IMG/VR virus record: IMGVR_UViG_3300006224_000002
Coordinates: 1 to 49,122 of that record
Origin: a virus
Lineage: Duplodnaviria > Caudoviricetes
Strand: one strand, 5' to 3'
Length of the DNA: 49,122 bases
The notes beneath the pieces were generated by a model. The model was not told the origin of the DNA, made no database searches, and worked only from the letters and a program-made list of their open reading frames with translations. Every line of letters begins with the position of its first letter. Position 1 is the stretch's first letter. The translations under genes and the position numbers were made by a program. Shown here one piece after another: positions 2,684 to 41,998 of this stretch.

Positions 2684-2779
2684 TACTTGCCCCAAAAAAC
2701 AGTTGTGTAGGCTGCATTCTAGGGGCAAGCATAAACATATATAATATCGAATCATATTAAGTGTTGTGTAGGTTGCATG
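2684..2779. promoter_or_regulatory. Nuclease-leader hairpin cassette, copy A (before tnpB)
   Basis: Stem CTTGCCCC 2686-2693 / GGGGCAAG 2722-2729; A6 at 2694-2699; loop GTTGTGTAGGCTGCAT 2702-2717 repeated as GTTGTGTAGGTTGCAT 2763-2778; GCATA 2729; CATATTA 2753. Confidence 0.8.
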
Positions 2780-3946
2780 AAGAAAGCATACAAATTCAGA
2801 ATATACCCGAACAAGCATCAAGAAGTTAATCTGAACAGGACTCTTGCTACATGCAGACATCTCTACAACGATTCCCTTTCAAAGAGGAGACGGCAAGCAA
2901 AGCTTAACAACCTGTGCAGGGATTTTGGAGTATTCCCCTGGGGAAAGCCTGAATGGGTCTCATATGAAGACCAGGCTAACGACTTAGCATCATCGAAAAC
3001 CCCTGAGCAGAATGAAGTATTCTCCCAGGTCTTGCAGGATGTTCTGAGAAGGCTGGATAAGACCTTCAAGAACTTCTATCGTGGTTTCGGGTATCCAAGA
3101 TTCAAAGGAAGGAACAGGTATGATTCCTTCACCTATCCTCAAAAAGGATTTGGGCTAAAAGATGGAAAGCTAATCCTTTCAAAGATAGGTAATATCCGCA
3201 TATTCCAGCATCGTGAGATAGAAGGAACAATCAAGACATGCACGATCAAGAAGGATATTGATCAGTGGTATGTCGTATTCACAGTAGAAATCGAAAAACC
3301 TATAATCCCTGTTGAGATCATGACCAGAACAGGAATCGATGTTGGTCTGAAGTCGCTAATCACTCTTAGCAATGGAAAGCAGATAGAACCTCCTAGATTT
3401 CTGAGAGCGTCAGAGCAAAAACTTGTCTGGGAACAGAGAAAGTTAAGCAGGAAAAAGAAAGGCTCTGCTAATAGAAATAGGCAGAGATTCAAGGTAGCGA
3501 AAGTTCACAGGAAAGTCAAGAATCAGAGAAAGGACTTTGCTCATAAAACAAGCAGAGAACTTGTTAATAATTACGACTTGATAGCATTTGAGAACTTGAA
3601 CATTAGGGGTATGGTTCAGAACCATCGCCTTGCTAAATCAATCTCGGATGCTGGATGGTATCAGCTACAAACATTCACAGCATACAAAGCGGAAGATGCT
3701 GGCAAGCAGTGTAAGTTTGTAGTTTCTAACGGAACATCGCAAGAATGCAGTGTCTGCGGAAACAAGGAAATACTGACGTTAGCAGATAGGGTATTCCGAT
3801 GCTCCCGATGCGGACACATCGAAGATAGAGATGTTAATGCATCAAAAAATATCAAGAACAGAGCAGTAGGGACGGACTGTCCCGAATTAACGCCTGTGGA
3901 GAGTATGCACAAGCAACTCGTGGAAGCAGGAAGCCCCGTTCTTTAG
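2777..3946 (+). CDS. tnpB: TnpB RNA-guided endonuclease (IS200/IS605 family OrfB)
   Basis: N-terminal KAYKFRIYP, RuvC-I GIDVGLK, RuvC-II AFENL, zinc finger CSVC...CSRC, RuvC-III DRDVNAS; all three catalytic acidic residues present. Confidence 0.95.
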   Translation: MKKAYKFRIYPNKHQEVNLNRTLATCRHLYNDSLSKRRRQAKLNNLCRDFGVFPWGKPEWVSYEDQANDLASSKTPEQNEVFSQVLQDVLRRLDKTFKNFYRGFGYPRFKGRNRYDSFTYPQKGFGLKDGKLILSKIGNIRIFQHREIEGTIKTCTIKKDIDQWYVVFTVEIEKPIIPVEIMTRTGIDVGLKSLITLSNGKQIEPPRFLRASEQKLVWEQRKLSRKKKGSANRNRQRFKVAKVHRKVKNQRKDFAHKTSRELVNNYDLIAFENLNIRGMVQNHRLAKSISDAGWYQLQTFTAYKAEDAGKQCKFVVSNGTSQECSVCGNKEILTLADRVFRCSRCGHIEDRDVNASKNIKNRAVGTDCPELTPVESMHKQLVEAGSPVL

Positions 3947-3980
3947 AACGGGAGGATGTCACTTCATTTTCTTCAAGAAT
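3860..3980 (+). ncRNA. Putative TnpB omega/reRNA 3' portion with right-end hairpin and guide (5' limit uncertain)
   Basis: GAAGCCCCGTTCTTTAGAACGGGAGGATGTCAC has the stem CCCGTTC/GAACGGG with a TTTA loop and ends in TCAC at 3959-3962, typical of IS605-type right ends. Predicted guide begins TTCATTTTCTTCAAGA at 3963. Confidence 0.7.
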
Positions 3981-5074
3981 TCTAATCCCAGCCCCATGAT
4001 CTCAATCCATGCCTGTTTTTCATTCTTATGGTGGTCAATAGTTATCCCGTATGGCGACAACAGTGCGCCAGTCAAGTCAATCCCATGCACCTGGTTGTAA
4101 ACCGCTGGCATGTCGCTGTCCTGCTGCCATCCCGCTTGTTTGCAATGCTGGGAATAACTGAGGATCTGTGAAAGTTCGGTATTTCTTCCCCTGCGCGATG
4201 TGTAGAGCTGGACTTCGTTCCATCGTTCGATCCCAGCAGCCTTCGCGATCTGCTTGACGGCTTTCCTTGCAGTTTCGTATTTGATATGCTGACCTCTTCT
4301 ACCTCCGCGGATGTCTACCCAGACATGATCGTCTTGTACTTTTGTACAGTTCTTGGATTCCACGGAATCCATACTTTGTACATATGTATAATTCCTCATC
4401 TTTAGCCATGCCTTCAGCCAAGGCACCGTAAAGAATAGTGACACTACCCGCGCCCCCGTCTTGCTTTCGGGCGACAGGGTCAGGTATGCAATATCGAGGC
4501 TCACACTAACAGGAGTTCCGTTGCCGTTTGCCATCTTCGCGGGGATTGTCTCGAATCTGATATCTTCGCGTTTCAGCATGAAAAACTCGTGCGGCCTGCA
4601 GTTGGATTCATACAGGCACGCGAGCATGGCTTTATCTCGGAAATGCGGCCAGTTGCATTGACATATCTTCAGGATATCGTGAACTGTAAGGAAAAAGCGC
4701 GGGAGGATAGCTCTGGCAGATGTGGTTTTTATCTGCGTTGCCAAGGGATTATTGAGATGTTCCAGGACTCGTTTCAGGAATATTTTATAATCCCTTTTGG
4801 CTTCCGAACCGTATCCTGTATTATGCTCGATGATTGATAATGTATGATACAATGCATCTTGCGTTACATCATGAAATGAATGGAGATATCCACGCTCTAT
4901 GATGAGGCGCAGGTAAAGATAATATTTCTCTGCACGACTGTACTTTATCTTTGTCGCAAGAAGCTTGTCTATCAATGCAGTAACGGCAGACTTATCTTGT
5001 TCAGATATTGCTTTAGAAGAAAGGAACTTTTCTTTTGCCCGATCGTAATGATTTGGAATCCACGTTTTTATCAC
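3959..5074 (-). CDS. int: Tyrosine recombinase / integrase
   Basis: RDKAMLACLYESNCRPHE (R), SKTGAR (K), LYTSRRGR (H-x-x-R variant), AGW...SDMPAVY (W, catalytic Y); archaeal-type integrase; GTG start. Confidence 0.9.
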   Translation of the reverse strand: MIKTWIPNHYDRAKEKFLSSKAISEQDKSAVTALIDKLLATKIKYSRAEKYYLYLRLIIERGYLHSFHDVTQDALYHTLSIIEHNTGYGSEAKRDYKIFLKRVLEHLNNPLATQIKTTSARAILPRFFLTVHDILKICQCNWPHFRDKAMLACLYESNCRPHEFFMLKREDIRFETIPAKMANGNGTPVSVSLDIAYLTLSPESKTGARVVSLFFTVPWLKAWLKMRNYTYVQSMDSVESKNCTKVQDDHVWVDIRGGRRGQHIKYETARKAVKQIAKAAGIERWNEVQLYTSRRGRNTELSQILSYSQHCKQAGWQQDSDMPAVYNQVHGIDLTGALLSPYGITIDHHKNEKQAWIEIMGLGLEFLKKMK

Positions 5075-5148
5075 CGGACTTCTTTGACCGTTAAATCGGG
5101 CATAAAGTTATTGATGTGCATAATATAGACAAGGATAATAATAACCAC

Positions 5149-5451
5149 TCACAAATATGCGCTCGCTCCGTCCGAGCTTATGAAGTTCAGCAGTGAATCC
5201 AGTGAGGCTGGTGTCGATGGATTCTCAGTACTAAGCGGGAACATGTGGCTTGGTGGGTCGGTACTAATCCCAGTCGGGGCGTAGGTTTTTTTCTCTGCCC
5301 GCAGTCTCTCAAGAAACTGAGTTATAGCAATCGTACAAACATCGGATACGCTTGAGAACTCGGTTTTATCAGCCACGACCAAGTCAAGTTCTTTCTTTAA
5401 ATATGGCGACAATGTTATGTTTACTTGTTCTTTGTGTTTGGTAGATGTCAT
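5149..5451 (-). CDS. Ribbon-helix-helix (CopG-like) regulator, candidate repressor
   Basis: QVNITLSPYLKKELDLVV...FSSVSDVCTIAITQFL RHH pattern; GGAGGTGA SD; same orientation as int. Confidence 0.72.
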   Translation of the reverse strand: MTSTKHKEQVNITLSPYLKKELDLVVADKTEFSSVSDVCTIAITQFLERLRAEKKTYAPTGISTDPPSHMFPLSTENPSTPASLDSLLNFISSDGASAYL

Positions 5452-5478
5452 AGTCTGTATTCACCTCCATTCATCCTT

Positions 5479-5596
5479 TACTTTATCTTTACTATGATAT
5501 ATATTTTTCCTTAAGTAATGAATAAATAACTATAAATTTTAGATGTTACTATAGTAAAGAGAGAGTACCAAAAGATATTTAAGTAAAGAGAGAGTA
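5479..5596. promoter_or_regulatory. Divergent promoter region with three operator-like repeats AGTAAAGA(G/T)A(G/A)AGTA
   Basis: Copies at 5553-5567 (+), 5582-5596 (+) and 5479-5493 (-), with AT-rich TATA-like segments, between two divergent RHH genes. Confidence 0.75.
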
Positions 5597-5607
5597 AAGG
5601 AAGAATT

Positions 5608-5799
5608 ATGGTACAAAAGCAAGAGGGCTCAAAGATCGTCAATTTTAAAATGACCGAGGAAGACTTGGAACGACTTGATAAACTTGTTGAGAAGGAAGGG
5701 TATCATGACCGTGCTGACGCTATCCGCACATTAATCAGAATGAGGTTTGAAATACAGTTCCCCGTATCGGCGCAGTCTGCGGAGGCTCAACATGCCTGA
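5608..5799 (+). CDS. Ribbon-helix-helix (CopG/NikR N-terminal-like) regulator, Cro-like position
   Basis: IVNFKMTEEDLERLDKLVEKEGYHDRADAIRTLIR is a clear RHH signature; first gene of the rightward early operon. Confidence 0.82.
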   Translation: MVQKQEGSKIVNFKMTEEDLERLDKLVEKEGYHDRADAIRTLIRMRFEIQFPVSAQSAEAQHA

Positions 5800-6136
5800 A
5801 TGTTTCAAATGTGGAACTGTATTTGAACCGCTCATTAAACACCATTTGAGCTATAATCCTGAGAGACTTGTAGATTGTTGTCTTTCCTGTCATAGAATTA
5901 TTCACGAGAAAATCAGAAGAGAGGGCACGTGCCCGTTGCCCCCGAAAGTAGTTGAGAGACTTTCTACGAACAGTAGCCGATGCAGGTATCATAAAAATCA
6001 TAGAGAGCGAATTCATTTTCACGAGACAATTGCGCCGTATGTAATGCTCATAGAAAATATCGATTATAATAAAAAAACTGGAAATGTTGGTTATTGGGCT
6101 GGATTTCGGATAATATGCGAGGGGGTACAATCATGA
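5792..6136 (+). CDS. Small HNH-like zinc-binding protein
   Basis: CFKC...KHHLSY...CLSCHRIIH; GGAGG upstream of ATG 5792. Confidence 0.55.
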   Translation: MPECFKCGTVFEPLIKHHLSYNPERLVDCCLSCHRIIHEKIRREGTCPLPPKVVERLSTNSSRCRYHKNHRERIHFHETIAPYVMLIENIDYNKKTGNVGYWAGFRIICEGVQS

Positions 6137-6306
6137 CCAGAAAGAGCATATATGAGCGTATTGAAGCTCTTGACTTGGGCGCCAGTCATTACATGCTTGG
6201 GCTGTGGCACAAAGGGATACAGTTTCCGCTTGCGTTACAGAGCGCAGAAAAGAAGATGAGGACAGAAACCCCCGAACAGATGGAATTGTTGGGGGCGCAG
6301 GCATGA
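6133..6306 (+). CDS. Hypothetical protein
   Basis: ATGA overlaps with both neighbours; GAGGGGG SD-like motif. Confidence 0.5.
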   Translation: MTRKSIYERIEALDLGASHYMLGLWHKGIQFPLALQSAEKKMRTETPEQMELLGAQA

Positions 6307-6611
6307 CCAGAAGGGGCGCAGTTGGAATCCATGATATGTTCCTGCCTAATGAATATGCAGATACTCTTGGCTTCATCGTTACTTTCAACGATGGCACTCA
6401 GATGCAAGTATCTGGCGGTCTGGCAAGCATACCTGAAGAGATGATAAAAAATCACGGCAGAGTCAAGGACGCTGTTGAACTAACGAATGACGGCCGGTTG
6501 GGGATGTTCCCGAACTGCAAGCATATCAAATGTTCAAAGTGCAGGACAAAGACGAAAGTGCATTGTTGCACTCAGGCGTGGAATGGCTTTCAGTCAGCGG
6601 GGGCGTGCTGA
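6303..6611 (+). CDS. Hypothetical Cys-rich protein
   Basis: ATGA coupling; C-terminal CKHIKCSKC...HCC. Confidence 0.5.
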   Translation: MTRRGAVGIHDMFLPNEYADTLGFIVTFNDGTQMQVSGGLASIPEEMIKNHGRVKDAVELTNDGRLGMFPNCKHIKCSKCRTKTKVHCCTQAWNGFQSAGAC

Positions 6612-6829
6612 TGAACCACCATACAGAACAAATAACGATGGTATGTATACATTGTGGAAATAAGCAAGTAATGCGAGAAATTCCATCAGAAGGTATGCAT
6701 TTAGATAATATCGCGTTATGTTGTGAGGGGGCAAGTTATTATGTAGTAGATTCCCCACAGGCAAAATATTTTTTTGAAAAACAAATGGGCGAAACGGGTA
6801 TTAAGGGTGGAGGCAAGACCGAAGTATAA
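6611..6829 (+). CDS. Hypothetical zinc-ribbon protein
   Basis: TGATG coupling; CIHCG...CC. Confidence 0.5.
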   Translation: MNHHTEQITMVCIHCGNKQVMREIPSEGMHLDNIALCCEGASYYVVDSPQAKYFFEKQMGETGIKGGGKTEV

Positions 6830-6899
6830 CTGAAAATACGGATTATGGTGGTGCAGAAATGAAGAATAAACAAAGCGTAGAGACTGAACGGGTGGTATA

Positions 6900-7649
6900 A
6901 TGTCAAATTTCGGTAGTAAAATTAAAGATAAATGTCTGAAGGCTATCAAAGCGAAGCCTGGGTTACTCAGATATGAACTTTATAATATGGGTATTGGCCA
7001 CCGAACAGGTATCCTGTTGTGGGTGTCTCGGATGGTCTATGAAGGAATAATTGTGAGGGTATGGGATGATGTAATGCGATCATGGAGATTGTATCCCAAA
7101 GGGAAAGAACCTCAACTGCACAAACCCGAATCTAAAATGTATGTTAATTCGCTTTTCTCACGTAATATCTTGGATCGAAAGGAGGTGGCAGATTACAAAT
7201 TCAATAAAGGACATGGAAATGATTTTTATAATGCTTTTGATGAGGCTTTCGGGATACTGTATATCGATTTGAAGATTTTGGGAATAGCTGCGCAGGAGTT
7301 AAATTCTCCAGAGGTCAATGACGATGTGGCCTTCGCGCTTGTGACTGATACCGTCACTCCTATCCTAAAAGAGAGTAGTAACCATTTTTGTGCGAAGGCC
7401 GGAACCGGGGGCATTTACCACCACCTAACCGAATCCGTTTTGACTTCCCCGGTTCCCACCACCAAGACCAGAGCAGGTTTAAACCCTTTTTCTAACCCAC
7501 TCCCAACCTCCTGCTCTGGTTACTCACAATTATGCACTGCATTTGGTTCATGCTCCTCGAACTGTCGGCCAGATGCATCCCAATTATCAGATTCCAGTTA
7601 TGATTCGCAAGAGTCTAACACGAGATTCCCGGAAGGTGAATGCGTATAG
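6900..7649 (+). CDS. Winged-helix protein (N-terminal), C-terminal third of doubtful coding status
   Basis: N-terminal AIKAKPGL...EGIIVR...SWRLYP resembles the ORFs at 10058 and 13137; the 3' part overlaps GC-rich inverted repeats. Confidence 0.5.
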   Translation: MSNFGSKIKDKCLKAIKAKPGLLRYELYNMGIGHRTGILLWVSRMVYEGIIVRVWDDVMRSWRLYPKGKEPQLHKPESKMYVNSLFSRNILDRKEVADYKFNKGHGNDFYNAFDEAFGILYIDLKILGIAAQELNSPEVNDDVAFALVTDTVTPILKESSNHFCAKAGTGGIYHHLTESVLTSPVPTTKTRAGLNPFSNPLPTSCSGYSQLCTAFGSCSSNCRPDASQLSDSSYDSQESNTRFPEGECV

Positions 7650-7724
7650 CCGCCTTCGACAAAAGACTTTCCGGGATCGACCTCTCGTTCAAAGGTCGAA
7701 TAACAAGAAACGAGATGAGATAAT

Positions 7725-7922
7725 ATGAAGAAAACAGTACATGAACTAAGAAAAAATCAGAGGGTGCAAGCCGTCCGTGAGAAGATTGCAGCCGCACCCC
7801 GCAAAGTATCGCCAGAAGATAACATAAATGTTCCGCAGTGTTTCCATTGTGGTGCTCTGCTTCCGCACGACACCCAGTTCCAGGAACTGCACATGAAAAC
7901 CGTACATGGGCTGGTGGTGTGA
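7725..7922 (+). CDS. Small C2H2-like zinc protein
   Basis: CFHCG...LHMKTVH. Confidence 0.5.
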   Translation: MKKTVHELRKNQRVQAVREKIAAAPRKVSPEDNINVPQCFHCGALLPHDTQFQELHMKTVHGLVV

Positions 7923-7923
7923 T

Positions 7924-8523: not shown

Positions 8524-8524
8524 A

Positions 8525-8713
8525 ATGGAAATTGTATGGACGCATGAAAAACAAGATGAGGTCTGTGAAAGACTTGATAAATGGCTCATGGCACACCATG
8601 CATATTCAGGCGAGATGATGCAACAGGACGACGACTGCCAGACGGATGCGATCAACATTTTATCGGAACTGGTTGATGAGATAATTAAACCTTCCACAGA
8701 AGACGAGGAGTGA
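8525..8713 (+). CDS. Hypothetical acidic protein
   Basis: GAGGT SD, tight operonic spacing. Confidence 0.55.
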   Translation: MEIVWTHEKQDEVCERLDKWLMAHHAYSGEMMQQDDDCQTDAINILSELVDEIIKPSTEDEE

Positions 8714-11219: not shown

Positions 11220-11225
11220 TCAAAA

Positions 11226-11331
11226 TACCAGTGGGTAAAAAAGCATCTTGTTCAAGAGGTGCAAGTTATCCCACTGGCATAGGTTTTATATGTCTTGCGG
11301 GATATTATACTTTCTGTTCAAGAGGTGAATG
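11226..11331. promoter_or_regulatory. Nuclease-leader hairpin cassette, copy D
   Basis: Stem CCAGTGGG 11228-11235 / CCCACTGG 11270-11277; A6 at 11237-11242; TGTTCAAGAGGTG at 11249-11261 and 11315-11327; GCATA 11277; GATATTA 11301. Confidence 0.8.
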
Positions 11332-11757
11332 ATGCAGATCTCAGGTCCAAAACCAAATAATTATTTTCATAACAATCCTAAAACAAGAGATTTCATTATA
11401 GCATCAACCAATAAAATTATACGTGGTAAGAAAAGAGCGTTTCCTACAAACAGATCGTGTGAGATTTGCCATTATAAACCTTTAAAGAAACTTGATTACC
11501 ATCACTGGGACGATTCTAAACCAATCAGAGGTCTGTGGGTTTGCGGAGTTTGTCATAAACAAATACATAAATTTGAAAATGGCGAACCTATTAAACAAGG
11601 CAGATTTTCTTGGGAAGCGTGTCTCGATAGATATCTCAAATTGAAAAAGGAAATTGATGCAGGTAAAAATCTCTTGACTAAATCTCGCAGGCAGTTGTTA
11701 TCTCTGCATCAAAAGATTATGGCCAATGCCATTTTTGGGTTGGATGTGGTATTGTGA
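11329..11757 (+). CDS. HNH-like (His-Me finger) endonuclease
   Basis: CEICH...LDYHHWDD...LWVCGVCHKQIH. Confidence 0.65.
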   Translation: MMQISGPKPNNYFHNNPKTRDFIIASTNKIIRGKKRAFPTNRSCEICHYKPLKKLDYHHWDDSKPIRGLWVCGVCHKQIHKFENGEPIKQGRFSWEACLDRYLKLKKEIDAGKNLLTKSRRQLLSLHQKIMANAIFGLDVVL

Positions 11758-11765
11758 TGTTATTT

Positions 11766-12105
11766 TGTTTACATTTATGTTTACAAAAAGTAAACAACTT
11801 TGTTTACACTTATAAAGAAAAAGTGTTTACATTTCTGTTTACATGTAAACACTTTTTACCGACGGGTATCTATCAGATTATGAAAAACAGGGTTTTTATA
11901 ACCGAGGGTAATAAACAGGTGAAGAAACTTGGAATAGTAATTTTATAATAATCGATTACTAATTGTATATATTATAGGAGTTGTATGTTATTATTTGATG
12001 GTGTTATAATAAAAACGGTGAATAAAAACGGTGGGCGACCTGTTTACAAAGGCAGTGTTTACAGTAAACAAATTTGTTTACATTTAGTAAACGGTGGTGT
12101 TTACA
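11766..12105. repeat. Two clusters of TGTTTAC(A) repeats around an AT-rich spacer; candidate replication origin
   Basis: Forward copies at 11766, 11778, 11801, 11824, 11836, 12041, 12056, 12075, 12098; reverse copies at 11790, 11844, 12064, 12087; tandem AATAAAAACGGTG x2 at 12008-12033. Confidence 0.75.
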
Positions 12106-18684: not shown

Positions 18685-18840
18685 ATAAAGGAACAAACAT
18701 GAGTATTGAATCCGGCGAGCTGAGATTGTGGGAACCAACGGGGATAGAACAGTATAATCCGCCTTTATTGCTTGTTGCGTTGGCATTTGTATTGATTATT
18801 GTCTTACTATATCTTCTGTTATTCACATTACCTTAAAATC

Positions 18841-19647
18841 ATGCCCACCGAACTTGAACAATTCATCGAAAAGCTGAACAGGATCATCAAAGACCTGAAG
18901 CGCAGGCAGAGTGATGCACTTGCCAGGCACATCGCAACATCGTTCACCCTCGGATATCAGAAAGGTAAGATCGTGCCCGGTGGATATCCGAACGAGAGGA
19001 GCCTGCAGCGAAGAGCGATAGAAGAACTCACGACAACTAACCTGGGATACCTGGACGAGTTTGATTCTGCGCTTGGGGACAAGTTGAAAGGACACCTACA
19101 GGAAGTCATAAAGGTCGGTGGCGGGTATGAAGATGTTCGAAGAAATCTTGTACCTTACGTTGAAGAAGTCTTCGGGGAAAACGGGCAAGTAACGATTGAC
19201 CGCACAGGCCAGACCAGGGAGATCATCACTGTAGACCAGGACGGAAACCTACACAGAGAACAGAAGACCATCCAGGAGCCTTACACGACCTCGGTAAAGG
19301 CTTATAGCGAAATGTTAAGCAGGACGGTAGCCCATTCCTCCTACGCAAAAGGCCGTGCTACGGGTTATAAGGCATCAGGGATAGAAAAACTTCGCGTAGT
19401 GGTAATGCAGGACGAGAGGGCCAGGGCTTCCCACCTCGCCGTTCACGGGAAAATAATTGAGATCGGGAGTCCTGAAGAACAGATGATTTTAGACCTGCAT
19501 TCTGAACCAAACTGCAGGTGCAGAACGATTCCATATTTGGATAATAATCTGGATACCCCGAACTCAGTTTATGAAAAGCAGAAAGATAAATTTGATTTAA
19601 AGTTCGAGAATGGAGAATGGATGTTTAACAAGTTACCTGCCCTTTAA
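18841..19647 (+). CDS. Head morphogenesis protein (MuF / SPP1 gp7-like)
   Basis: SEMLSRT...DERARASHLAVHG...EPNCRC. Confidence 0.82.
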   Translation: MPTELEQFIEKLNRIIKDLKRRQSDALARHIATSFTLGYQKGKIVPGGYPNERSLQRRAIEELTTTNLGYLDEFDSALGDKLKGHLQEVIKVGGGYEDVRRNLVPYVEEVFGENGQVTIDRTGQTREIITVDQDGNLHREQKTIQEPYTTSVKAYSEMLSRTVAHSSYAKGRATGYKASGIEKLRVVVMQDERARASHLAVHGKIIEIGSPEEQMILDLHSEPNCRCRTIPYLDNNLDTPNSVYEKQKDKFDLKFENGEWMFNKLPAL

Positions 19648-19736
19648 AAAACGATTGCTAAGGTCGGATTTCAAGGGCAGGCATAATTATATATGTTTAC
19701 AAAGCATATTAGTGTTTGCTAAGGTCGGCAAACATG
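19634..19736. promoter_or_regulatory. Nuclease-leader hairpin cassette, copy B
   Basis: Stem CCTGCCCTT 19636-19644 / AAGGGCAGG 19673-19681; A6 at 19646-19651; TTGCTAAGGTCGG at 19655-19667 and 19716-19728; GCATA 19681; CATATTA 19705. Confidence 0.8.
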
Positions 19737-20564
19737 AAGTATAATCAAACGGATTCTAAGGGAAGATTCGTTCCCGGGATTAAAATAACCAAAATATGCT
19801 TGAATTGCGGAAAGAAATTTATAGTTAATACAAGCGGTGTTTATCGAAAATATTGCTCGCATGTTTGTTCAATAAAGCATAAAATAAAAACAGGCCATTG
19901 TTTAAAACGAGCACAAAAACCATGCATTCAGTGTGGTAAACCTATAATAGAACGTCCATCGAAGGTAAAACGTCGAAAATTCTGTTCTTACAAATGCAGT
20001 GTGGAAGCAAGAAAAAATAGGATAAAGCGAGAATGCCCCACATGCAAAAGCGAATTTATTACAAAACCAAGCCAAATTATTAATGGAAAAGGAATTTATT
20101 GTTCGCATCGTTGTTGGTGTAAATCTCGAAACGAGGTAGCAATGGTAACTATACATTGCGAAAATTGCGGCAAAGAGTTTAAGATGTTGCGTTCTAACGC
20201 ATTGCATACAGCAACAGACAATTCACAGCGAGTATTGTTTTGTTCACGAGCATGTTATTATGATTCTGAAAATTTCAAAGACAAAATGGAACGTTTGAAA
20301 CCTCCAAAAGGTAAGTTAAATAAAAACTGGTGCGGAGGTGCAAAAATATCACGAAGTCGGTTTCGTCATCGAAGAGCAAACAAAGGATTTATAATTATCT
20401 CTGATAAAGTTCCATATGACGAACCAATTGAATATCATCATCCTCATCCAAATCTTCCTTTTGTTGTTCCATGTCCAGCAAGGATTCATAAGATGTTTGT
20501 TGGTGCAAATAAAAACCATTTTAGAAATGTAAATGCAATGTTAGGTTTAAAGTTAAAATTCTAA
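19734..20564 (+). CDS. Putative homing endonuclease: four CxxC...(Y/F)CSxxC zinc repeats plus C-terminal His-rich nuclease-like domain
   Basis: Repeats CLNCG/YCSHVC, CIQCG/FCSYKC, CPTCK/YCSHRC, CENCG/FCSRAC; NKNWCGG; YHHPHP...PCPARIH. Confidence 0.7.
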   Translation: MKYNQTDSKGRFVPGIKITKICLNCGKKFIVNTSGVYRKYCSHVCSIKHKIKTGHCLKRAQKPCIQCGKPIIERPSKVKRRKFCSYKCSVEARKNRIKRECPTCKSEFITKPSQIINGKGIYCSHRCWCKSRNEVAMVTIHCENCGKEFKMLRSNALHTATDNSQRVLFCSRACYYDSENFKDKMERLKPPKGKLNKNWCGGAKISRSRFRHRRANKGFIIISDKVPYDEPIEYHHPHPNLPFVVPCPARIHKMFVGANKNHFRNVNAMLGLKLKF

Positions 20565-36139: not shown

Positions 36140-36140
36140 T

Positions 36141-37361
36141 ATGCCGGAACTACCATACATTATTTTCGGGACCTTCACAAAAGACGGGGTGGTTCAGAAC
36201 GGCGCGACCATCACCATCGAGAACGTCACGAAGGTTACGAGTGACACAACGACCACGGATGCGAGCGGGAATTATATCTATGACGATATCCAGGCATCCC
36301 CACTCAACACTGAATCCGGGGATACTATCCGAGTCAGTACATCGGATGGTGCGCAGGTGGAGTTCGTTGCGGGAGCCCCGGAAGAACGTGAAGTTAATTT
36401 CGATTATGATATCACTCAGGTAGTTGCTGCAGGCGGTGCGGTTACTGGTGGGGTTGTTCCTGTTTATATTGTACGGCCATCCGAAGCCTCTGGCGGCGCA
36501 GTGGTTGCCGGGACGAGTATATATTATATAATTGCGGCCACCCCCGCGATCTCCGGCGGTGCAGTAGCAGGCGGCACAAGTACGTCTTCCATAGTCGTAG
36601 TCACTCCGGCCATCTCTGGCGGCGCGTTAGCTGGGGGAACAAGCACATCTTATATAATAGCGGTTCCTCCAGCCACCACAGGCGGCGCGGTTTGCGCAGG
36701 AGCCGCGGATAATGTTTACATCATGCGACTCGTGGAAGTCGTAGGATCTGGTGGTGCAGTAGCCGGGGGCTCCGTCTCGTATACTGTGATCTATGATGCG
36801 AACGTAATCGTATGCGTTGCTTCTGGAGGTGCGGTTGCCGGGGGAAGTGCCAGCGATATTAAGCTATTGGCGGTTACGGTTGGGACAGGCGGTGCCGTTT
36901 CCGGCGGATCTGTGTCTTATTCGGTGATCATCGCTGCGCAAGTCATTACTTGTGTGGCAGCAGGGGGTGCAGTCGCGGGTGGAGAGGCTACCAGCTCTAT
37001 TATGCGTCTTGTCGTTATCGATGCTTCAGGAGGCGCAATCGCTGGAGGAGATGCCACTTATTCCGTCGTCGGGGCGAACGTCGTTATTTGTGTGGCTGAC
37101 GGCGGTGCGGTGGTCGCTGGAGATGCGGACTACTCCCTCCGTGAAGTGGTCACTTCGATAGCTTCTGGTGGTGCCGAAGTCGGAGGTTCTGCGGATTGGA
37201 TACAGGTCGTGACGTTCCCAGGATCTGGCGGTGCGGTTGTTGGTGGGAGTGCAGTTCTTGGAAGTGCAATAAGACTTGATATTGCGCTCAGTCATGGAAC
37301 CGCGTTCAACCATGCTTTAAGTCATGGAAAGTCACATTCTATTGCAATGGAGTCACAGTAA
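36141..37361 (+). CDS. Repeat-rich fibre/adhesin-like protein
   Basis: N-terminal Ig-like TTTTDASGNY; 13 GGAV(A/V)GG-type repeats separated by beta-strands. Confidence 0.65.
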   Translation: MPELPYIIFGTFTKDGVVQNGATITIENVTKVTSDTTTTDASGNYIYDDIQASPLNTESGDTIRVSTSDGAQVEFVAGAPEEREVNFDYDITQVVAAGGAVTGGVVPVYIVRPSEASGGAVVAGTSIYYIIAATPAISGGAVAGGTSTSSIVVVTPAISGGALAGGTSTSYIIAVPPATTGGAVCAGAADNVYIMRLVEVVGSGGAVAGGSVSYTVIYDANVIVCVASGGAVAGGSASDIKLLAVTVGTGGAVSGGSVSYSVIIAAQVITCVAAGGAVAGGEATSSIMRLVVIDASGGAIAGGDATYSVVGANVVICVADGGAVVAGDADYSLREVVTSIASGGAEVGGSADWIQVVTFPGSGGAVVGGSAVLGSAIRLDIALSHGTAFNHALSHGKSHSIAMESQ

Positions 37362-37515
37362 CTATGGATAGCTACATACCCGGACAATTAAACAAGGATT
37401 TTTTAGAGCAACGGGAGAAGGAACTTGCGTGGTCGAATTGGGTTCGAAAGCACTGGAACTACCAAGAGATAAAGAACGAAAGCTGTTCATCCAATACTTC
37501 ACGGGGTAATAATAT

Positions 37516-37815
37516 ATGACAAATTTCGCAGATCTGACAGCATACAAACGAGGCAGTACATACATCTGTAAAGCCGTGGTAACGAATCCTGATACTGGCG
37601 CACTGGTTGACCCGACATCAATCACCGCGGGGTTTACCAAAGCTGACGGATCCACAGTTACTGCAGCGGCGATGTCGAAGGATAGCACAGGAACATATCA
37701 TCTTGATTATGCCATTCCCTCGGATGCGGTGCAGGGTGTGTGGCGGCCGTTCGTGACTGCAACCACGGGAACGAGAGTAAAGATAGATGAATCTGAGTTT
37801 TTGGTAACAGCATGA
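37516..37815 (+). CDS. Ig-like virion protein (BppU N-terminal-like)
   Basis: KRGSTY...LVDPTSIT...DSTGTYHLDY...GVW. Confidence 0.55.
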   Translation: MTNFADLTAYKRGSTYICKAVVTNPDTGALVDPTSITAGFTKADGSTVTAAAMSKDSTGTYHLDYAIPSDAVQGVWRPFVTATTGTRVKIDESEFLVTA

Positions 37816-38174
37816 GCTTCAGTATCTTCGACTGGCCGAATGCGATCACGCGGGTCACGGTGACTGCAGAAAGCACGAGTTCTGACGGTACATATGTTCC
37901 TGAAGTCACGGCTGAAACATCGATATCCGGGCACGTTTCGGATATCAACCTGAAAGAACTCCTCTTGATGGAGCCCGGGGTATTCCAGATAGGCGACAGG
38001 AAGATCTCCCTGGAAACAAGTATAGGGCTGGCTGTGGGCGATAGATTAAAAATAGTAGAGCTTACCGGGGAAGAAACAGAATGGCTGGTTAAAGCCAAAC
38101 AGCAGACGTCAGGTCTGTTATCAAAATATGCCGGGGTCAGCAGGGAATCGTTTTACCTCAAACGAAAATTATAA
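37812..38174 (+). CDS. Head-closure protein (putative)
   Basis: beta-rich 120 aa; GDRKI...LAVGDRL...EWLV pattern; ATGA coupling. Confidence 0.55.
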   Translation: MSFSIFDWPNAITRVTVTAESTSSDGTYVPEVTAETSISGHVSDINLKELLLMEPGVFQIGDRKISLETSIGLAVGDRLKIVELTGEETEWLVKAKQQTSGLLSKYAGVSRESFYLKRKL

Positions 38175-38389
38175 AGCACTGCGAAGCAGTAGATAGGTGA
38201 CAACCCTTCCACAGTTGACCGCTGTGCCACCCTCGGCATCTTAAATTTATTGTTGTGGGCACTGGTTCGTGCAACACGCACCCTGAAGAGGGCTATCGTC
38301 CTGGCATTTGTTGGGTTCTATGGTTTCAACTCCTTTTCCATTCTAATATTTTTCTTGATTCATTATCACACACAACTGACCTCACATAC

Positions 38390-39789
38390 TCAAAAAATAA
38401 TAAAGAACAAAGACAAAACCTCAAAACATATAATTAAAAATAACATACGGTTCTGGCTATCAACCAATTTAGGTTCCTGCGAATATGGAACTATATCCGA
38501 ATCATAATACAGTTTATGCCATATTTCAGCTTTAACTGTGTCTGCTCTATCTTTATTTTGGCATCGAATTACTACATTGAATCCATTTTCTTTCATATTT
38601 TCCTCCATGCTTCTTTTATCTTTCAATTTAGTGACGAGATTTTGCATATTCATTCCTCCAGTAGCACTACTGCCACCTTCTTCCCTGCCCATTTCGCAGG
38701 CAGGTATATCATACTCGAAGATGCGCTATGTGGCGAGACTTTCTTCTCCTGGTACTCGTAACCGATAAGAATGTGTTTCTGGGGCTTCATTTTAATTCTA
38801 CCCCGTCTGAAACATAACAATCGCTTGGTTCTGCGCCGTCGATATACTCACGAAGGTTATCAATTACCTTTACTCTCAATTCAGATTTCGATAAAGGATT
38901 CTCACTATCATCTTCGATTACTACATCGATATTCAATTGAATCTCGAATCTATATGCAACCATTATTTCTCTCCTTTCCTGATATCCGCTGCATTCTTCT
39001 CCCTGCACCAGAACTCATAATCATCATCACCAGGTTTGGGGCTCATTTCAGTTGTCTTCCTCATATAAATCTGGATTCATTTTTCTACATATTCGCCATA
39101 TTCTATACGACATTATACCCCAATCCCTGCCAAACCTGTGTCTATGATTAAATATCGTTGATTTTGATAGTCCTTTCATCGTTCCTCCAAATCTATTCCG
39201 ATGCTCTGAAAATAATCATCGCATACCTGCCGATCTCCGCAATCGTTACAGGTATCCGCAACAGGACAGCTCGATACTTCCTGGCTCATAATTGATAATC
39301 TTTCCTGCATTTTTGCCGACCAACCTTTTCGCCATATTTCCAGACCTTCCACAACCCGGTTAATCCGATTGTAAATGCATCGTCCTGTTCGAAGATTGTC
39401 TGTTTTTCATCGACATCAATTCCTAATAAAGTACCCATTGCGTGAATGAATTCTATCGACGGATATTCGTTTCTATCTTCTTCAGTCATATCGCGTACCT
39501 CATCATTGTTTTCTCAAAATCTGCTCGTTTTTCTGGATACTTTTGATTTGTTTTTTTATTTCTGTTAGCAACAATTCAAGTTCAGATATGGAATATTTAT
39601 TATCTTGAATATCATATATTATTTTCCCTATTTCGCTCATAGCCTCACCCCTTGTTTTTTCAACTCAACCTCGAAACCCAGCATCGTGAACGCATAGGAT
39701 TCAAAAGTTATCTTTCCTTCTCTCAGCAATTTTTCGCCTTCTATTCGAGCCGTGCGAAAGGCTTTTATGATTTCCTGTTTATTTGACAT
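38390..39789 (-). other. Minus-strand island of short hypothetical ORFs (including 38390-38692, 38787-39008, 39286-39489, 39637-39789)
   Basis: Chain of short ORFs with GAGG/GGAGG SDs and ATGA overlaps; TATA-like TATATAAG on the minus strand near 39886-39893. Confidence 0.55.
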
Positions 39790-39950
39790 TGTTTATCTAC
39801 CTCGATTAGATAAGCCATCCTCTGGGTGCTGAATACACCGCAGGGGTTATTCTTATCCGTTAGTAATCACTATGTAATTACTACCTTATATATCTTGTCA
39901 TTCCAGAACCCGACTTTTCTTTATATCCTCATCATCTAAAACCCTTCATC

Positions 39951-40415
39951 ATGTTTGATAGGATATTAGACATATTATGGGATTATTTCAGAGCCCCGAA
40001 ACGAACACCGATAAGGGCCATGCCGGAGGTTAGCAGTGCGAAACTTGATAGCGAGCTTCTATCCCTGTTCACTTCAAATATCTGGATTTCTGATGCGAAA
40101 TATGTCCAGGTTCATACCGATGATCTTAAAGCATTTCTGGCACTGAACCCGGTCAGCACTCGAAAGTACCTTCTGGAATCTCAGGACTGTGATGATTTCT
40201 CATTTGAGGCCCAGGGGGATGTATGCAAATGGTACAACGATGAGGAGCAAAACTCCAACGGAGCATTCGGGATCGTATGGGGATTCAATGCAGGAGGTAG
40301 TGCTCATGCCTGGAACTTCTTCGTGAATGAGAACAACAAAGTTATGTTCATGGAGCCCCAGACAGATGAAATCTTTTCTCCTGGGTCGGAGAAAGTCTGG
40401 ATTATGATAATGTAA
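39951..40415 (+). CDS. Papain/transglutaminase-like cysteine protease (MOA C-terminal-like)
   Basis: QDCDDFS...AFGIVWG...HAWNFF...MEPQTD; has its own promoter motif at 39913. Confidence 0.68.
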   Translation: MFDRILDILWDYFRAPKRTPIRAMPEVSSAKLDSELLSLFTSNIWISDAKYVQVHTDDLKAFLALNPVSTRKYLLESQDCDDFSFEAQGDVCKWYNDEEQNSNGAFGIVWGFNAGGSAHAWNFFVNENNKVMFMEPQTDEIFSPGSEKVWIMIM

Positions 40416-40426
40416 AAGGTGAACAT

Positions 40427-40609
40427 ATGTGCGGATGTGAAGAGGTAGTCTTGTGGATGGATAAATGCGCACCTGATAGGCTTGTTGCGAACCGGGTGAT
40501 GTTGTGTACCAGGAACATGTTTTTGCTTGAAAACGGGTGTGATGTATACCCCGAAGTTTACCATGATATTATCAGAGCAAGCGGCAATGCCGGGATAGTC
40601 ACTGAATGA
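40427..40609 (+). CDS. Hypothetical protein
   Basis: AGGTGA SD; ATGA coupling. Confidence 0.45.
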   Translation: MCGCEEVVLWMDKCAPDRLVANRVMLCTRNMFLLENGCDVYPEVYHDIIRASGNAGIVTE

Positions 40610-40800
40610 ACTCTGAAACAATACATATGCTGTTCGCCTGGATGGAAAAACGATTGTCAGAACCAGAGAAGAAATTGATACTATCCAAGTACCCCAAGAT
40701 ATTCACGCCGCGGAAACATGCAACTGCTCTTAATATTGATGCGAGAATAGTAAAGATACTCAAATGTCTGGAGGAAAACCATGTCTGGGTGCGGCCATAA
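40606..40800 (+). CDS. Hypothetical protein
   Basis: Coupled start; 64 aa. Confidence 0.45.
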   Translation: MNSETIHMLFAWMEKRLSEPEKKLILSKYPKIFTPRKHATALNIDARIVKILKCLEENHVWVRP

Positions 40801-41281
40801 ACTCTGGATATTACTGATAGTATTATTGTTACCGATTGCAGCAGAAGCATCGAGCATATCCCTCAAACCAACGAAAATAAACACATACCTGATAGTGGAT
40901 ATTTATCTTGATAATCCTGATGGTTTGTCCGGATTACAGACTAAGTTGATTGCTACGAATGCCACATTTATCAGAGACTTTAGGGGTGATGCATGTGGTT
41001 GGGGTATGAAAGCTAACGGTTGGTATATGGGTGTAGCATTGGGTAAAAATGAAACCTGCGATAATGGGATATTCTATTCAGCGATATACAGGCCAGTACG
41101 GGGTAAGATATATTCAATTCGTACCAACGGAACTCTGGGGGCATACCCTAACGGCACAGGAGTTTATCTGAATGAATACAGTGTTTCAAACGCAGTTTAC
41201 ACGTTTCCACAAGCTATCGATATGAATGGTGATTCTATCATTAACGTATTTGATTTACTAATTCAGGCACAGGATGACTGA
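40781..41281 (+). CDS. Secreted cohesin-like protein ending in one dockerin-like Ca-binding repeat
   Basis: GGAGG SD; signal peptide; IVDIYLD...LSGLQTKL; C-terminal DMNGDSIINVFDL. Confidence 0.55.
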   Translation: MSGCGHKLWILLIVLLLPIAAEASSISLKPTKINTYLIVDIYLDNPDGLSGLQTKLIATNATFIRDFRGDACGWGMKANGWYMGVALGKNETCDNGIFYSAIYRPVRGKIYSIRTNGTLGAYPNGTGVYLNEYSVSNAVYTFPQAIDMNGDSIINVFDLLIQAQDD

Positions 41282-41466
41282 AGGAATGTTGGATGACCGG
41301 ATGCGCCCGTAAATGCCCATGTCGCAGTTGGGTTCAGTGTAATTATTATAATGATGAAAAGAAAAGAGCGCATCGTTTGCAGATGAAAGAGTATGACTTC
41401 CATGAATGGTTTGATGAACGGTTCAGGACGAGTTATGAAATGCATGATTATTTTATGGGCTGAAAT

Positions 41467-41880
41467 ATGATAGAAATCACACTTGAACGCAAAGGGCCTG
41501 GGATGGAAAAGGCCATAGAAGAGATACTCGGTAAGATGCCGAAAGCGTTAGATACGGCAGGTTCGTTCCTGGAAGCAAAGATGGTTGAGAAGATTAATAG
41601 CAATATACCTCCTGAGCTTAATCCAAAAACCATAAAGAGAAAAGGATCGTCGCTTGCACTTGTGGATACTGGCGAACTTATCGGAATGGTGTCTCATGAA
41701 ACAGATGGGCTTGAAACAAAGGTCGGGATATTATCGAATACAGGAGAGCGAGCTTTTATTGGAATGTTGATGGAATATGGTGCTCCGGCTATTCCGATTC
41801 CAGAGAGAAGTTTTGAACGCTCGACTTTTAATGAAGAAAAAGATAATGTTGTTAAGATAATAACCGAGACTATTAAATAA
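41467..41880 (+). CDS. Neck / tail-completion protein (HK97 gp10 / virion morphogenesis-like)
   Basis: PELNPKTIKRKGSSLALVDTGEL...MEYGA...IPERSF. Confidence 0.75.
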   Translation: MIEITLERKGPGMEKAIEEILGKMPKALDTAGSFLEAKMVEKINSNIPPELNPKTIKRKGSSLALVDTGELIGMVSHETDGLETKVGILSNTGERAFIGMLMEYGAPAIPIPERSFERSTFNEEKDNVVKIITETIK

Positions 41881-41891
41881 AAAATACTTTT

Positions 41892-41998
41892 TACCCAACC
41901 CATAAAAAAGCATGTCTTAGGTGCTTGATATTTAGGTTGGGCATACTTATTTATGTCATCAATACATATTAAGTGTTGTCTTAGGTGTATTGAGAATG
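41892..41998. promoter_or_regulatory. Nuclease-leader hairpin cassette, copy C
   Basis: Stem CCCAACC 41894-41900 / GGTTGGG 41935-41941; A6 at 41904-41909; TGTCTTAGGTG at 41913-41923 and 41977-41987; GCATA 41941; CATATTA 41965. Confidence 0.8.

Follow-up and report, generated by a model that had tools for sequence, protein, structure and literature searches.

In IS10, the loop of the stem-loop RNA-OUT pairs with the 5' end and ribosome-binding region of the RNA-IN mRNA, and the promoters of the two RNAs lie close together. In the homing-endonuclease genes of phage T4, translation is restricted by a hairpin with an embedded late promoter. The cassette described here, found before four nuclease genes of an archaeal virus, resembles IS10 in that a nuclease or transposase gene of a mobile element would be repressed by a short stem-loop RNA (here a predicted one), and the T4 genes in that free-standing selfish endonuclease genes have their own promoter in or beside a hairpin. 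However, RNA-OUT overlaps its target and is a true cis-antisense RNA, whereas here the complementarity would stem from a second leader copy lying upstream, and the predicted transcripts are divergent and non-overlapping; also unlike IS10, the cassette is archaeal, has TATA-type promoters and is common to unrelated gene families. The upstream arm of the T4 hairpin is complementary to the ribosome-binding site of the same RNA; the cassette loop is instead identical to the leader, and same-strand sequestration of the T4 kind is thus excluded.

Other base-pairing RNAs are comparable in part. The art200 sRNA of IS200, opposite the tnpA 5'UTR, blocks translation initiation, with RNA structure as a second layer of control (PMC4513863). 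On the passages of that source drawn on here, the two share the IS200/IS605 superfamily and a base-pairing sRNA (predicted in our case), but art200 controls TnpA whereas the gene here is tnpB, HNH or Cas1, and the cassette regulator would lie upstream of the promoter, its match being a duplicated 11-16 nt box. In tisB/istR-1, shoB/ohsC, zor/orz as well as dinQ/agrB the sRNA adjoins its target, with transcription directed away and no overlap (PMC4147584), and the DNA of these type I toxin-antitoxin pairs carries a short direct repeat because a stretch of the sRNA is complementary to the target 5'UTR. The adjacent, divergent arrangement and the short repeat are thus alike. As far as that source describes them, however, these antitoxins miss the translation start and act on the long 5'UTRs of small membrane toxins in bacteria, whereas in the cassette a short leader is matched as far as the start codon, the targets are nucleases, and the setting is archaea and viruses. 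Archaea commonly control mobile-element genes by antisense RNA, with six cis-antisense sRNAs overlapping transposase genes in Methanosarcina mazei and 28 in Sulfolobus solfataricus (PMC4152357). These overlap the gene, unlike the RNA predicted from the cassette, and the sections of that source used here report among them no portable module in which a loop presents a leader match. An Rfam search with the cassette matched no family, and no account of it was found there or in the literature searched, in keeping with the first-pass annotation, to which it was likewise unfamiliar.

The window, i.e. the whole 49-kb stretch of DNA analysed, is a complete archaeal virus with four homologous cassettes of ~105 nt, and no others, before tnpB and three HNH-like genes (Table 1). 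The order of elements is ATAC, stem, A-run (A6 in all four), linker, box 1, T-run, stem', GCATA, TATA-like 1, TATA-like 2, box 2, ATG; the loop box (GTTGTGTAGG(C/T)TGCAT in cassette 1) is repeated just 5' of the start codon, 61, 66, 61 and 64 nt downstream in cassettes 1-4. All four sites read as the first-pass annotation had described them, with complementary stems, a box matching the gene's own leader and a constant spacing from GCATA to (C/G)ATATTA. Its gene identities also hold, that of tnpB being solid as judged from Pfam support, while "HNH-like" is a reasonable but weaker label for the other three: the PHROG HNH-endonuclease family match of P0002 (E 1.3e-15) is confined to its zinc-finger part, and the C-terminal domain common to P0002 and P0003 has a predicted beta-beta-alpha fold.

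Table 1. Nuclease genes and cassette features in the window
Feature	Position	Strand	Description
tnpB (389 aa)	2777..3946	+	Pfam OrfB_IS605 101 bits, plus TNB and HTH domains
HNH-like P0001 (142 aa)	11329..11757	+	CxxC..HH..CxxCH..H motif; PHROG endonuclease match E 1.2e-7
HNH-like P0002 (276 aa)	19734..20564	+	zinc-finger repeats and C-terminal domain
HNH-like P0003 (285 aa)	41996..42853	+	Pfam NUMOD3 repeats, 36.5 bits, and C-terminal domain
Cassette 1 hairpin (predicted antisense RNA span)	2683..2732	-	stem arms CTTGCCCC/GGGGCAAG, 2686-2693 with 2722-2729; outer helix ATAC+CTTGCCCC with GGGGCAAG+CAT; A6 2694-2699
Cassette 1 loop box 1	2702-2717		GTTGTGTAGGCTGCAT, inside hairpin
Cassette 1 promoter core	2729..2759	+	GCATA-N19-CATATTA; two TATA-like boxes
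Cassette 1 leader box 2	2763..2779	+	GTTGTGTAGGTTGCAT; overlaps ATG at 2777-2779
Cassette 2 hairpin	11225..11280	-	stem arms CCAGTGGG/CCCACTGG, 11228-11235 with 11270-11277; A6 11237-11242; box 1 (TGTTCAAGAGGTG) 11249-11261
Cassette 2 promoter core	11277..11307	+	GCATA-N19-GATATTA
Cassette 2 leader box 2 and first ATG	11315..11331	+	box 11315-11327; ATG 11329-11331
Cassette 3 hairpin	19634..19683	-	stem arms CCTGCCCTT/AAGGGCAGG, 19636-19644 with 19673-19681; A6 19646-19651; box 1 (TTGCTAAGGTCGG) 19655-19667
Cassette 3 promoter core	19681..19711	+	
Cassette 3 leader box 2 and ATG	19716..19736	+	box 19716-19728; ATG 19734-19736
Cassette 4 hairpin	41892..41943	-	stem arms CCCAACC/GGTTGGG, 41894-41900 with 41935-41941; A6 41904-41909; box 1 (TGTCTTAGGTG) 41913-41923
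Cassette 4 promoter core	41941..41971	+	
Cassette 4 leader box 2 and ATG	41977..41998	+	box 41977-41987; ATG 41996-41998

With at most one mismatch, GCATA-N19-(C/G)ATATTA occurs four times in the window, always on the + strand and at a cassette, against a mean of 0.64 in shuffles, of which 1/100 reached four. A generic search of the window for a hairpin whose loop is repeated downstream gave 24 loose matches vs 1-9 in 20 shuffles, and with a stem of at least 7 and a box of at least 10 its + strand matches were the four cassettes only; equally strong - strand matches belong to an unrelated TGTTTACA repeat region (~11773-12104). Cassettes alignable end to end number 22, and a covariance model built from 22 cassettes scores those of the window at E 4e-15 to 5e-9, the next-best window match being at E 1.6. 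The 5' arm of cassette 3 shares sequence with the final codons and stop codon of the Mu-F-like gene upstream (18799-19647).

Beyond the window, the model found 90 further matches in 19 of 53 Methanoperedenaceae genomes and 25 in 59 metagenome loci, with additional copies in other viruses. These homologous cassettes nearly always abut a nuclease start codon, before at least four TnpB subfamilies, three HNH-like types and Cas1. Among the 97 model matches that were classed (window, three viral loci and Methanoperedenaceae genomes), blastx identified the downstream gene as TnpB-like (three subfamilies) in 64 and as HNH-like in 3, and Pfam as Cas1 in 2 more; 19 of the 25 metagenome matches precede TnpB and 4 HNH-like genes. 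Placement is thus non-random by gene class. The first-pass annotation had spotted no cassette before a non-nuclease gene, which holds in the window; elsewhere, some rare intact cassettes stand before genes that are not nucleases or are of unknown kind (L325, a BadF/BcrAD ATPase; L315; L391; L328/L343). Box type tracks cassette lineage and not protein family; e.g. an identical box precedes different HNH-like genes, and similar boxes precede different TnpB subfamilies. The portable, gene-specific control module originally proposed is supported overall; control is putative, and the box follows cassette lineage.

The best reading, to which we give about an even chance, is that a divergent antisense hairpin RNA pairs through its loop with the mRNA 5' end and start codon. 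The cassette would be a portable expression module with two predicted back-to-back archaeal promoters: two TATA-like blocks are conserved, each at ~26 nt from a pyrimidine-purine step that is likewise conserved on the block's own strand, and by consensus rules they are taken to be divergent promoters and would fit divergent starts. Transcription of the nuclease mRNA would begin from the plus-strand promoter at the leader box, close to the TTG of box 2, and the minus-strand promoter would likely start a short hairpin RNA near GCATA, whose loop, complementary to the leader and start codon, would limit nuclease translation. Because loop and leader are retuned together in each copy, the regulator of a given copy would mostly target its own gene or close copies of that gene. 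If this is true, a small antisense RNA would hold down translation of selfish DNA-cutting enzymes. Against the antisense reading, the hairpin is wholly absent from at least 28 of 59 same-family TnpB loci, and the invariant A-run is T6 on the minus strand, within the loop and before the 3' arm, where an archaeal oligo-T terminator would eliminate the arm whose pairing is indicated by the G·U pattern.

That pattern comes from the stem. In 58 distinct good cassettes, 8 of 11 stem pairs show changes on both sides, with a covariation score reached by 0/500 shuffles, and on this comparative evidence the stem is under selection for pairing. It is predicted to pair better as minus-strand RNA: in the same sequences the outer helix is 96.6% paired in the minus vs 86.0% in the plus orientation, RNAalifold gives -14.0 vs -10.8 kcal/mol, and cassette 1 folds at -23.4 kcal/mol (z -4.5) vs -18.5 (z -2.4). 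Non-Watson-Crick stem pairs are mostly C·A when read on the gene strand, equivalent to G·U on the opposite one; the non-Watson-Crick core pairs, in cassettes with at most two, comprise 21 C·A/A·C, 7 G·T/T·G and 6 other, and the 24 distinct metagenome cassettes have 10 C·A, 0 G·T and 1 other mismatch. Of 93 cassettes, 71 have A·C at the conserved ATAC/GCAT flank and 11 have G-C, which on the minus strand amounts to a switch from G·U to G-C. However, cassette 2 folds better as plus-strand RNA (-24.8 vs -22.1 kcal/mol), and the inner helix, formed by the linker and the 3' part of box 1, has two pairs that become U·G on the plus strand and for this reason is 81.0% paired in plus vs 60.3% in minus. 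These two features favor a functional hairpin in plus-strand read-in transcripts, from upstream genes or from outside the insertion sequence, acting as insulator, processing site, loop-T-run terminator or decoy ribosome-binding site that prevents nuclease expression from read-through RNA. Hairpins upstream of IS200 transposase genes are known insulators; a conserved T-run lies 3' of box 1 on the plus strand, and contigs from the only RNA runs with a Methanoperedens copy (stored assembled, strand and ends not kept) span the left end into the cassette, one ending in adaptor letters mid box 1. Structure in the IS200 leader is mentioned in part of the art200 source (PMC4513863). Such a role is nonetheless unlikely, since it leaves the loop/leader identity unexplained, makes the outer-stem mismatches C·A rather than U·G and the conserved ATAC/GCAT A·C a permanent mismatch; nor could the loop sequester the leader, to which on the same strand it is not complementary.

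Loop and leader covary across homologues, as the earlier reading of the window implied: box 1/box 2 column identity is 81.0% vs 59.0% in shuffles, and 0/1000 reached the observed value. The 64 distinct box pairs contain 56 differences (34 C>T or A>G, 10 reverse transitions, 12 transversions), and C>T and A>G would be G·U between the antisense copy of box 1 and the mRNA, although 22 of the 56 lack wobble compatibility, against the antisense reading. The binomial p of 0.0004 is uncorrected, many counts are not independent events because related copies are included, and the C/T difference 6 nt 5' of the ATG may be a single old event. Box identity decays once the gene is broken: a box of at least 12 nt survives in 41 of 46 cassettes whose ORF is intact or open vs 26 of 41 whose ORF is broken (p 0.016). 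Cognate loop:leader duplexes in this virus are predicted at -22 to -28 and non-cognate ones at -9 to -14.5 kcal/mol; by this modeling the four are orthogonal. Box identity sets in near the predicted mRNA start and continues to the AT of ATG, the stretch that a translational repressor must cover.

The identity might instead be a by-product, the boxes being short direct repeats flanking a promoter unit, which arise and become homogenised by slippage or unequal recombination; the hairpin would then be no more than a DNA cruciform or a promoter element lying upstream, and RNA pairing would play no part. Tandem repeats are a known trait of Methanoperedens elements, a viral TnpB locus (L122) has a tandem duplication of box, stem' and promoter, and L214, L219, L244 and L242 are the exact deleted form (stem, A-run, one box, ATG). 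Yet at 11-16 nt the repeats are short for gene conversion, box identity decays behind broken genes, the differences are skewed to G·U-compatible transitions, the linker covaries with box 1 alone, and the compensatory stem changes need selection on pairing, all of which make this origin rather improbable.

Autorepression by the phage T4 endonuclease I-TevI is a model for the boxes as protein operators, e.g. with the encoded nuclease as its own repressor bound on both sides of the promoter. The promoter is indeed flanked by direct repeats, and genes encoding proteins with different DNA-binding modules have different boxes, but boxes are equally variable among TnpB orthologues, which lack such a sequence-specific module; moreover the TTGCTAAGGTCGG box precedes both P0002 and a 37%-identical P0003-like gene (L371), and the hairpin and wobble bias are left unexplained. 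We regard operators as very unlikely.

The virus tnpB sits in a tnpB-only IS200/IS605-type element (roughly 2607-3960), copies of which are homologous from 70 nt 5' of the cassette to just beyond the tnpB stop. That the cassette hairpin is a subterminal end hairpin recognised by the TnpA transposase, as its position upstream of tnpB and a preceding (T/A)TAC, which resembles the IS608 cleavage site, might suggest, has next to no probability and is regarded as already refuted by the copy boundaries and by a different left-end hairpin 70 nt farther upstream, and the cassette also precedes HNH-like, Cas1 and ATPase genes without such ends. The cassette is thus internal to the element and not a catalogued element end, a possibility that the first-pass annotation had raised against itself. 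The left-end hairpin resembles that of the right end.

The first-pass annotation had proposed that one hairpin cassette precedes four different nuclease genes, tnpB and the three HNH-like genes P0001, P0002 and P0003, and each site does read as claimed: in a unit of ~105 nt (ATAC, stem, A-run, linker, box 1, T-run, stem', GCATA, promoter, box 2, ATG), a perfect stem of 7-9 bp and an A6 run accompany a loop box (box 1) of 11-16 nt, and this box is found again 61-66 nt downstream, just 5' of the start codon, as the leader box (box 2) of the same gene (4/4). The GCATA-N19-(C/G)ATATTA spacing has four window occurrences at <=1 mismatch, none besides the cassette sites; shuffled sequences contain a mean of 0.64 and reached four in 1/100. 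In the covariance-model check (22 cassettes) the four sites are recovered at E 4e-15 to 5e-9, and the next window match lies at E 1.6.

Both the stem and the boxes vary in a concerted manner. Among 58 distinct good cassettes, changes on both sides occur in 8/11 stem pairs, a score reached in 0/500 shuffles; the expected covariation of loop and leader is likewise borne out, with box 1-box 2 column identity of 81.0% vs 59.0% for shuffled partners (0/1000). In TnpB cassettes the identity extends as far as the AT of the start codon ATG, and in HNH cassettes it spans the AGG(T) element, so that the predicted complementarity covers the translation-initiation region. For the four window cassettes the predicted loop:leader duplexes have energies of -22 to -28 kcal/mol when cognate and -9 to -14.5 when non-cognate, and the four are predicted to be mutually orthogonal. 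Covariation of the short linker 3' of the A-run is confined to the 3' part of box 1, which implies an inner helix with the 5' part of box 1 left in the apical loop.

The strands are not equivalent. Imperfect core pairs, counted in cassettes with <=2 non-Watson-Crick pairs, comprise 21 C·A/A·C, 7 G·T/T·G and 6 others (in 24 metagenome cassettes, C·A 10, G·T 0 and other 1), and a gene-strand C·A is an opposite-strand G·U. The ATAC/GCAT flanks contribute three more pairs; at one position the pair is A·C in 71/93 cassettes and G-C in 11. The resulting 11-bp helix is 96.6% paired as minus-strand RNA vs 86.0% as plus (gene-strand) RNA, and RNAalifold gives -14.0 kcal/mol for minus vs -10.8 for plus, asymmetries for which the number of independent events may be smaller than the counts imply, many of the counted copies being related. 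The 64 distinct box pairs contain 56 differences, of which 34 replace C with T or A with G when read from box 1 to box 2, 10 are transitions in the opposite sense and 12 transversions. The C>T/A>G differences would retain G·U pairing of a box 1-complementary RNA with the box 2 mRNA.

The promoter core carries two conserved TATA-like blocks. In archaea ~26 nt separate the TATA centre from the transcription start, and by this rule block 1 fits a predicted mRNA start at the TTG of box 2, and block 2, on the opposite strand, fits a predicted start at GCATA, i.e. at the first base of the minus-strand hairpin; possibly, (C/G)ATATTA is merely a proximal element of the plus promoter and not part of a minus promoter. 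We infer that the cassette is a compact divergent promoter, the rightward transcript of which would be the nuclease mRNA, carrying 11-25 nt of leader, and the leftward transcript a hairpin RNA of ~40-55 nt whose loop would be complementary to the nuclease leader up to the start codon; pairing of the two would block ribosome loading. We give this divergent-promoter and antisense-hairpin reading an even chance of being correct. Slightly more tentative is the broader proposal of an archaeal mobile-DNA "governor" of ~100 nt, in which back-to-back promoters would produce the nuclease mRNA and an antisense hairpin mirroring its first 11-16 bases, and which would hop among TnpB, HNH and Cas1 genes in viruses, insertion sequences and chromosomes, loop and leader being retuned in step so that orthogonal copies coexist in a genome.

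Several features stand against the antisense reading. The minus-strand T6 falls inside the hairpin loop and should stop the archaeal polymerase before the 3' arm; the inner helix is 81.0% paired on the plus strand vs 60.3% on the minus, with two pairs U·G on the plus strand; and cassette 2, that of P0001, folds better as plus RNA. The last two features agree with a less probable rival in which the element would be a plus-strand insulator or decoy hairpin, against which the minus-strand preference of the 11-bp helix is to be set. As a second rival, loop/leader identity could be a recombination by-product, and the two boxes do recombine, as indicated by relatives of the tnpB element having a deleted form (stem, A-run, single box, then ATG; 4 loci) or, in L122, a tandem duplication of the box, stem' and promoter unit; identity of the boxes is kept in 41/46 cassettes with an intact gene vs 26/41 otherwise. 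In a third, less likely still, the repeated boxes would be protein operators, a proposal to be set beside the excess of differences that would preserve G·U pairing. That the hairpin is the terminal, TnpA-recognised hairpin of an IS200/IS605 element is ruled out, as it is internal and the hairpin of the other end resembles a separate left-end one. As to transcripts, contigs of RNA runs X1-X4 span the cassette, tnpB and the right-end RNA region, as assembled contigs without strand, start or level. At locus L282 (RNA run X1) short RNA-library contigs, also strand-less, terminate with adaptor sequence at 1536, midway through loop box 1, which hints at a preferred RNA end within this loop.

The element is widespread in Methanoperedenaceae, the covariance model giving 90 matches in 19/53 genomes. 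In a joint alignment of 97 model matches (93 distinct), with downstream genes classed by blastx, the cassette is followed by TnpB of the window subfamily in 54, of a second subfamily in 8 and of a third in 2, by the HNH-like window genes in 3, and by unclassed sequence in 30. The unclassed set includes two Cas1 genes (L313, 118 bits; L357, a weak N-terminal match below cut-off), one BadF/BcrAD-type ATPase gene behind an intact cassette (L325), an HTH-CBS gene and a small ORF, both behind degenerate cassettes, and three unknown ORFs; the remainder are cut by contig ends or ORF-less, several retaining TnpB-like first codons. With a stricter DNA pattern the metagenomes yielded 62 stretches, 3 of them the window's own contig; the model, run on the remaining 59, gave 25 matches, preceding 15 first-subfamily TnpB, 4 second-subfamily TnpB and 4 HNH-like genes of three types, together with an unknown 281-aa ORF and one cut ORF. 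Over the viral collection the stricter pattern yielded 8 stretches, 3 of them true; five viral records scanned carry at most two cassettes per virus, and one further NUMOD3 gene lies behind a cassette. A first, loose pattern matched at least 118 loci in viral contigs (36/64 parts), with 1 locus passing the hairpin-plus-box filter among the matches listed, and a generic hairpin/repeat detector was too noisy for use on unrelated AT-rich phage loci. The interpretation of the first-pass annotation is supported in its essentials, the cassette lying before TnpB, HNH-like and Cas1 genes; its remark that no cassette was spotted before a non-nuclease gene concerned the window, where there are only four model sites, and L325 is an exception elsewhere.

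Some individual loci deserve description. Both Cas1 genes are solo genes directly 3' of intact cassettes; the neighbours of the L313 gene are not cas genes, its upstream ORF being glycosyltransferase-like, and it may be a casposase-like or orphan Cas1. The L325 ATPase gene (Pfam 108 bits) begins exactly at the cassette ATG, its box pair is identical, and it is possibly a host gene that has captured the module. The metagenome locus L387 has a cassette near-identical to that of the window tnpB, and here a chimeric ORF runs from eleven TnpB-like codons into zinc-finger repeats and is endonuclease-like, with a C-terminus that is PD-(D/E)XK-like by eye; from its sequence the chimera looks like a direct trace of module transfer between gene families.

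The claim of four nucleases is upheld for tnpB, whose product has strong Pfam matches, all above cut-offs, to the OrfB_IS605 RuvC-like core (101.2 bits), TNB zinc ribbon (76.8) and N-terminal HTH (52.2), but none of P0001-P0003 reached an HNH threshold or fold match, and Pfam gave no HNH match for any of them. These three are plausibly HNH-type homing endonucleases on the basis of motif, NUMOD3, PHROG names and a predicted beta-beta-alpha element. PHROG families named "endonuclease" or "HNH endonuclease" match the three at E 1.2e-7, 1.3e-15 and 2.8e-4, respectively, the matches of P0002 and P0003 covering DNA-binding repeats; ESM Atlas matches for the HNH-like candidates score 0.88 and are leads only. 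The C-terminal model of P0003 (pLDDT 66) places strands at IDYHH and VVPCP and then a helix at KRIHQM; this domain has no Foldseek match at E<=0.001, a top VIA Z score of 2.6 and no match in a PDB sequence search. Protein searches of viral contigs found no P0002 relatives, one locus for P0001, without a cassette match, and 80 for P0003, which have only NUMOD3 repeats in common; among 53 Methanoperedenaceae genomes the P0001 and P0003 queries found no homologues.

The window tnpB belongs to a complete tnpB-only IS200/IS605-type element inside the virus. Copies of the element share homology over -70 to +1284, counted from the cassette start, reaching ~10 nt beyond the tnpB stop, and since homology begins 70 nt upstream the cassette is internal, with the true left end on one side and tnpB on the other. 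The leftmost 70 nt make up a long hairpin structure of their own, and its inner hairpin resembles that of the right end; the right-end hairpin is unlike the cassette stem. The same family uses a hairpin-less promoter design in at least 28/59 loci, and such left ends (L209, L211, L216 and ~25 others) have a single TATA box ~27 nt from the ATG, which would give a nearly leaderless mRNA. In the window the right end (...GGATGTCAC) directly adjoins the integrase gene on its 3' side, and at the expected guide-RNA scaffold site there is a weak RAGATH-18-like Rfam match (30.5 bits, below gathering, E 0.029).

Coordinates of features in the window and at other loci
Feature	Location	Strand
tnpB	window 2777-3946	
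P0001	window 11329-11757	
P0002	window 19734-20564	
P0003	window 41996-42853	
tnpB-only element	window ~2607-3960	
Expected guide-RNA scaffold site, RAGATH-18-like match	window 3893-3932	
Integrase gene	window 3959-5074	minus
Repeat cluster directly 3' of P0001	window 11760-12105	
Cassette 3 5' arm with Mu-F-like gene 3' end	window 19636-19647	
Solo Cas1 gene	L313:460-1604	
Solo Cas1 gene	L357:1084-1605	
BadF/BcrAD-type ATPase gene	L325:814-1601	
Chimeric ORF	L387:165-1323	minus
Region of RNA-library contigs	L282:1459-1536	

Compared with known antisense or hairpin mechanisms acting on nucleases of mobile elements, the cassette is unusual in two ways: it is portable from one gene family to another, and it has a duplicated leader instead of overlap. 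IS10 RNA-OUT/RNA-IN would be similar in that pairing blocks ribosome loading, and the predicted complementarity of the cassette, like that of RNA-OUT and art200, lies over the translation-initiation region; however, those regulators overlap their targets on the opposite strand, whereas box 1 lies on the far side of the promoter, 61-66 nt 5' of box 2. In T4-type RBS-sequestering hairpins the upstream arm complements the ribosome-binding site on the same strand, whereas the loop box is a direct leader copy. With no overlap between the putative regulator and its target, the arrangement recalls that of divergent type I toxin-antitoxin loci such as tisB/istR-1, in which an adjacent, divergent, non-overlapping sRNA has a short 5'UTR match (PMC4147584); the type I target, however, is a small hydrophobic toxin, and those of the cassette are TnpB, HNH-like, Cas1 and similar proteins. 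The consulted portions of the literature on TnpB antisense RNAs and left ends and on Methanosarcina antisense transposase sRNAs (including PMC4152357) describe only overlapping cis-antisense RNAs and tnpB 3' sense RNAs. A text search of the main text of preprints on Methanoperedens extrachromosomal elements and TnpB found neither "hairpin" nor "promoter", and in one Methanoperedens preprint "antisense", "HNH" and "homing" were absent as well. The suggested Rfam comparison leaves the cassette without a family: the window has 0 matches at gathering thresholds, and in 18 kb around six cassettes nothing falls on a cassette at E<=1.

TnpB proteins are the ancestors of Cas12 and are now used as compact genome editors; the cassette, if the reading is true, would be the first described native control element of archaeal TnpB genes, and the first single regulatory module common to RNA-guided nucleases, homing endonucleases and Cas1. 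To our knowledge few sRNA mechanisms are established in archaea, and this would be a concrete case of trans-acting (non-overlapping) antisense translation control; given orthogonal copies, the design could then become a small set of programmable translational repressors for methanogen and ANME genetics. Most genes of Methanoperedens viruses and extrachromosomal elements lack annotation, and the cassette flags selfish nuclease genes in them. Should the RNA reading be wrong, a widespread and conserved covarying loop/leader pair would still be unexplained.

The window is bounded by direct terminal repeats as a complete virus record of 49,122 bases, with genes for a large terminase, RecT, a Dam-type methylase, an integrase, a Mu-F-like head protein and tail proteins. 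Its host, judged from sequence, is most likely a Methanoperedens archaeon, because relatives of its tnpB occupy 64 genome loci titled almost throughout Candidatus Methanoperedens or Methanoperedenaceae; two close TnpB relatives (L235 and L246) are on contigs binned as Nitrosotalea and Ratteibacteria, which points to mis-binning or transfer. The 5' arm of cassette 3, upstream of P0002, coincides with the final residues and stop codon of the upstream Mu-F-like head gene, so that the insertion reshaped, or used, the 3' end of that gene; a protein search of viral contigs found no relatives of the Mu-F-like protein. Directly 3' of P0001 are dense direct and inverted TGTTTACA / TGTAAACA repeats, a cluster that by its sequence looks like replication-origin iterons or a regulator-binding array.
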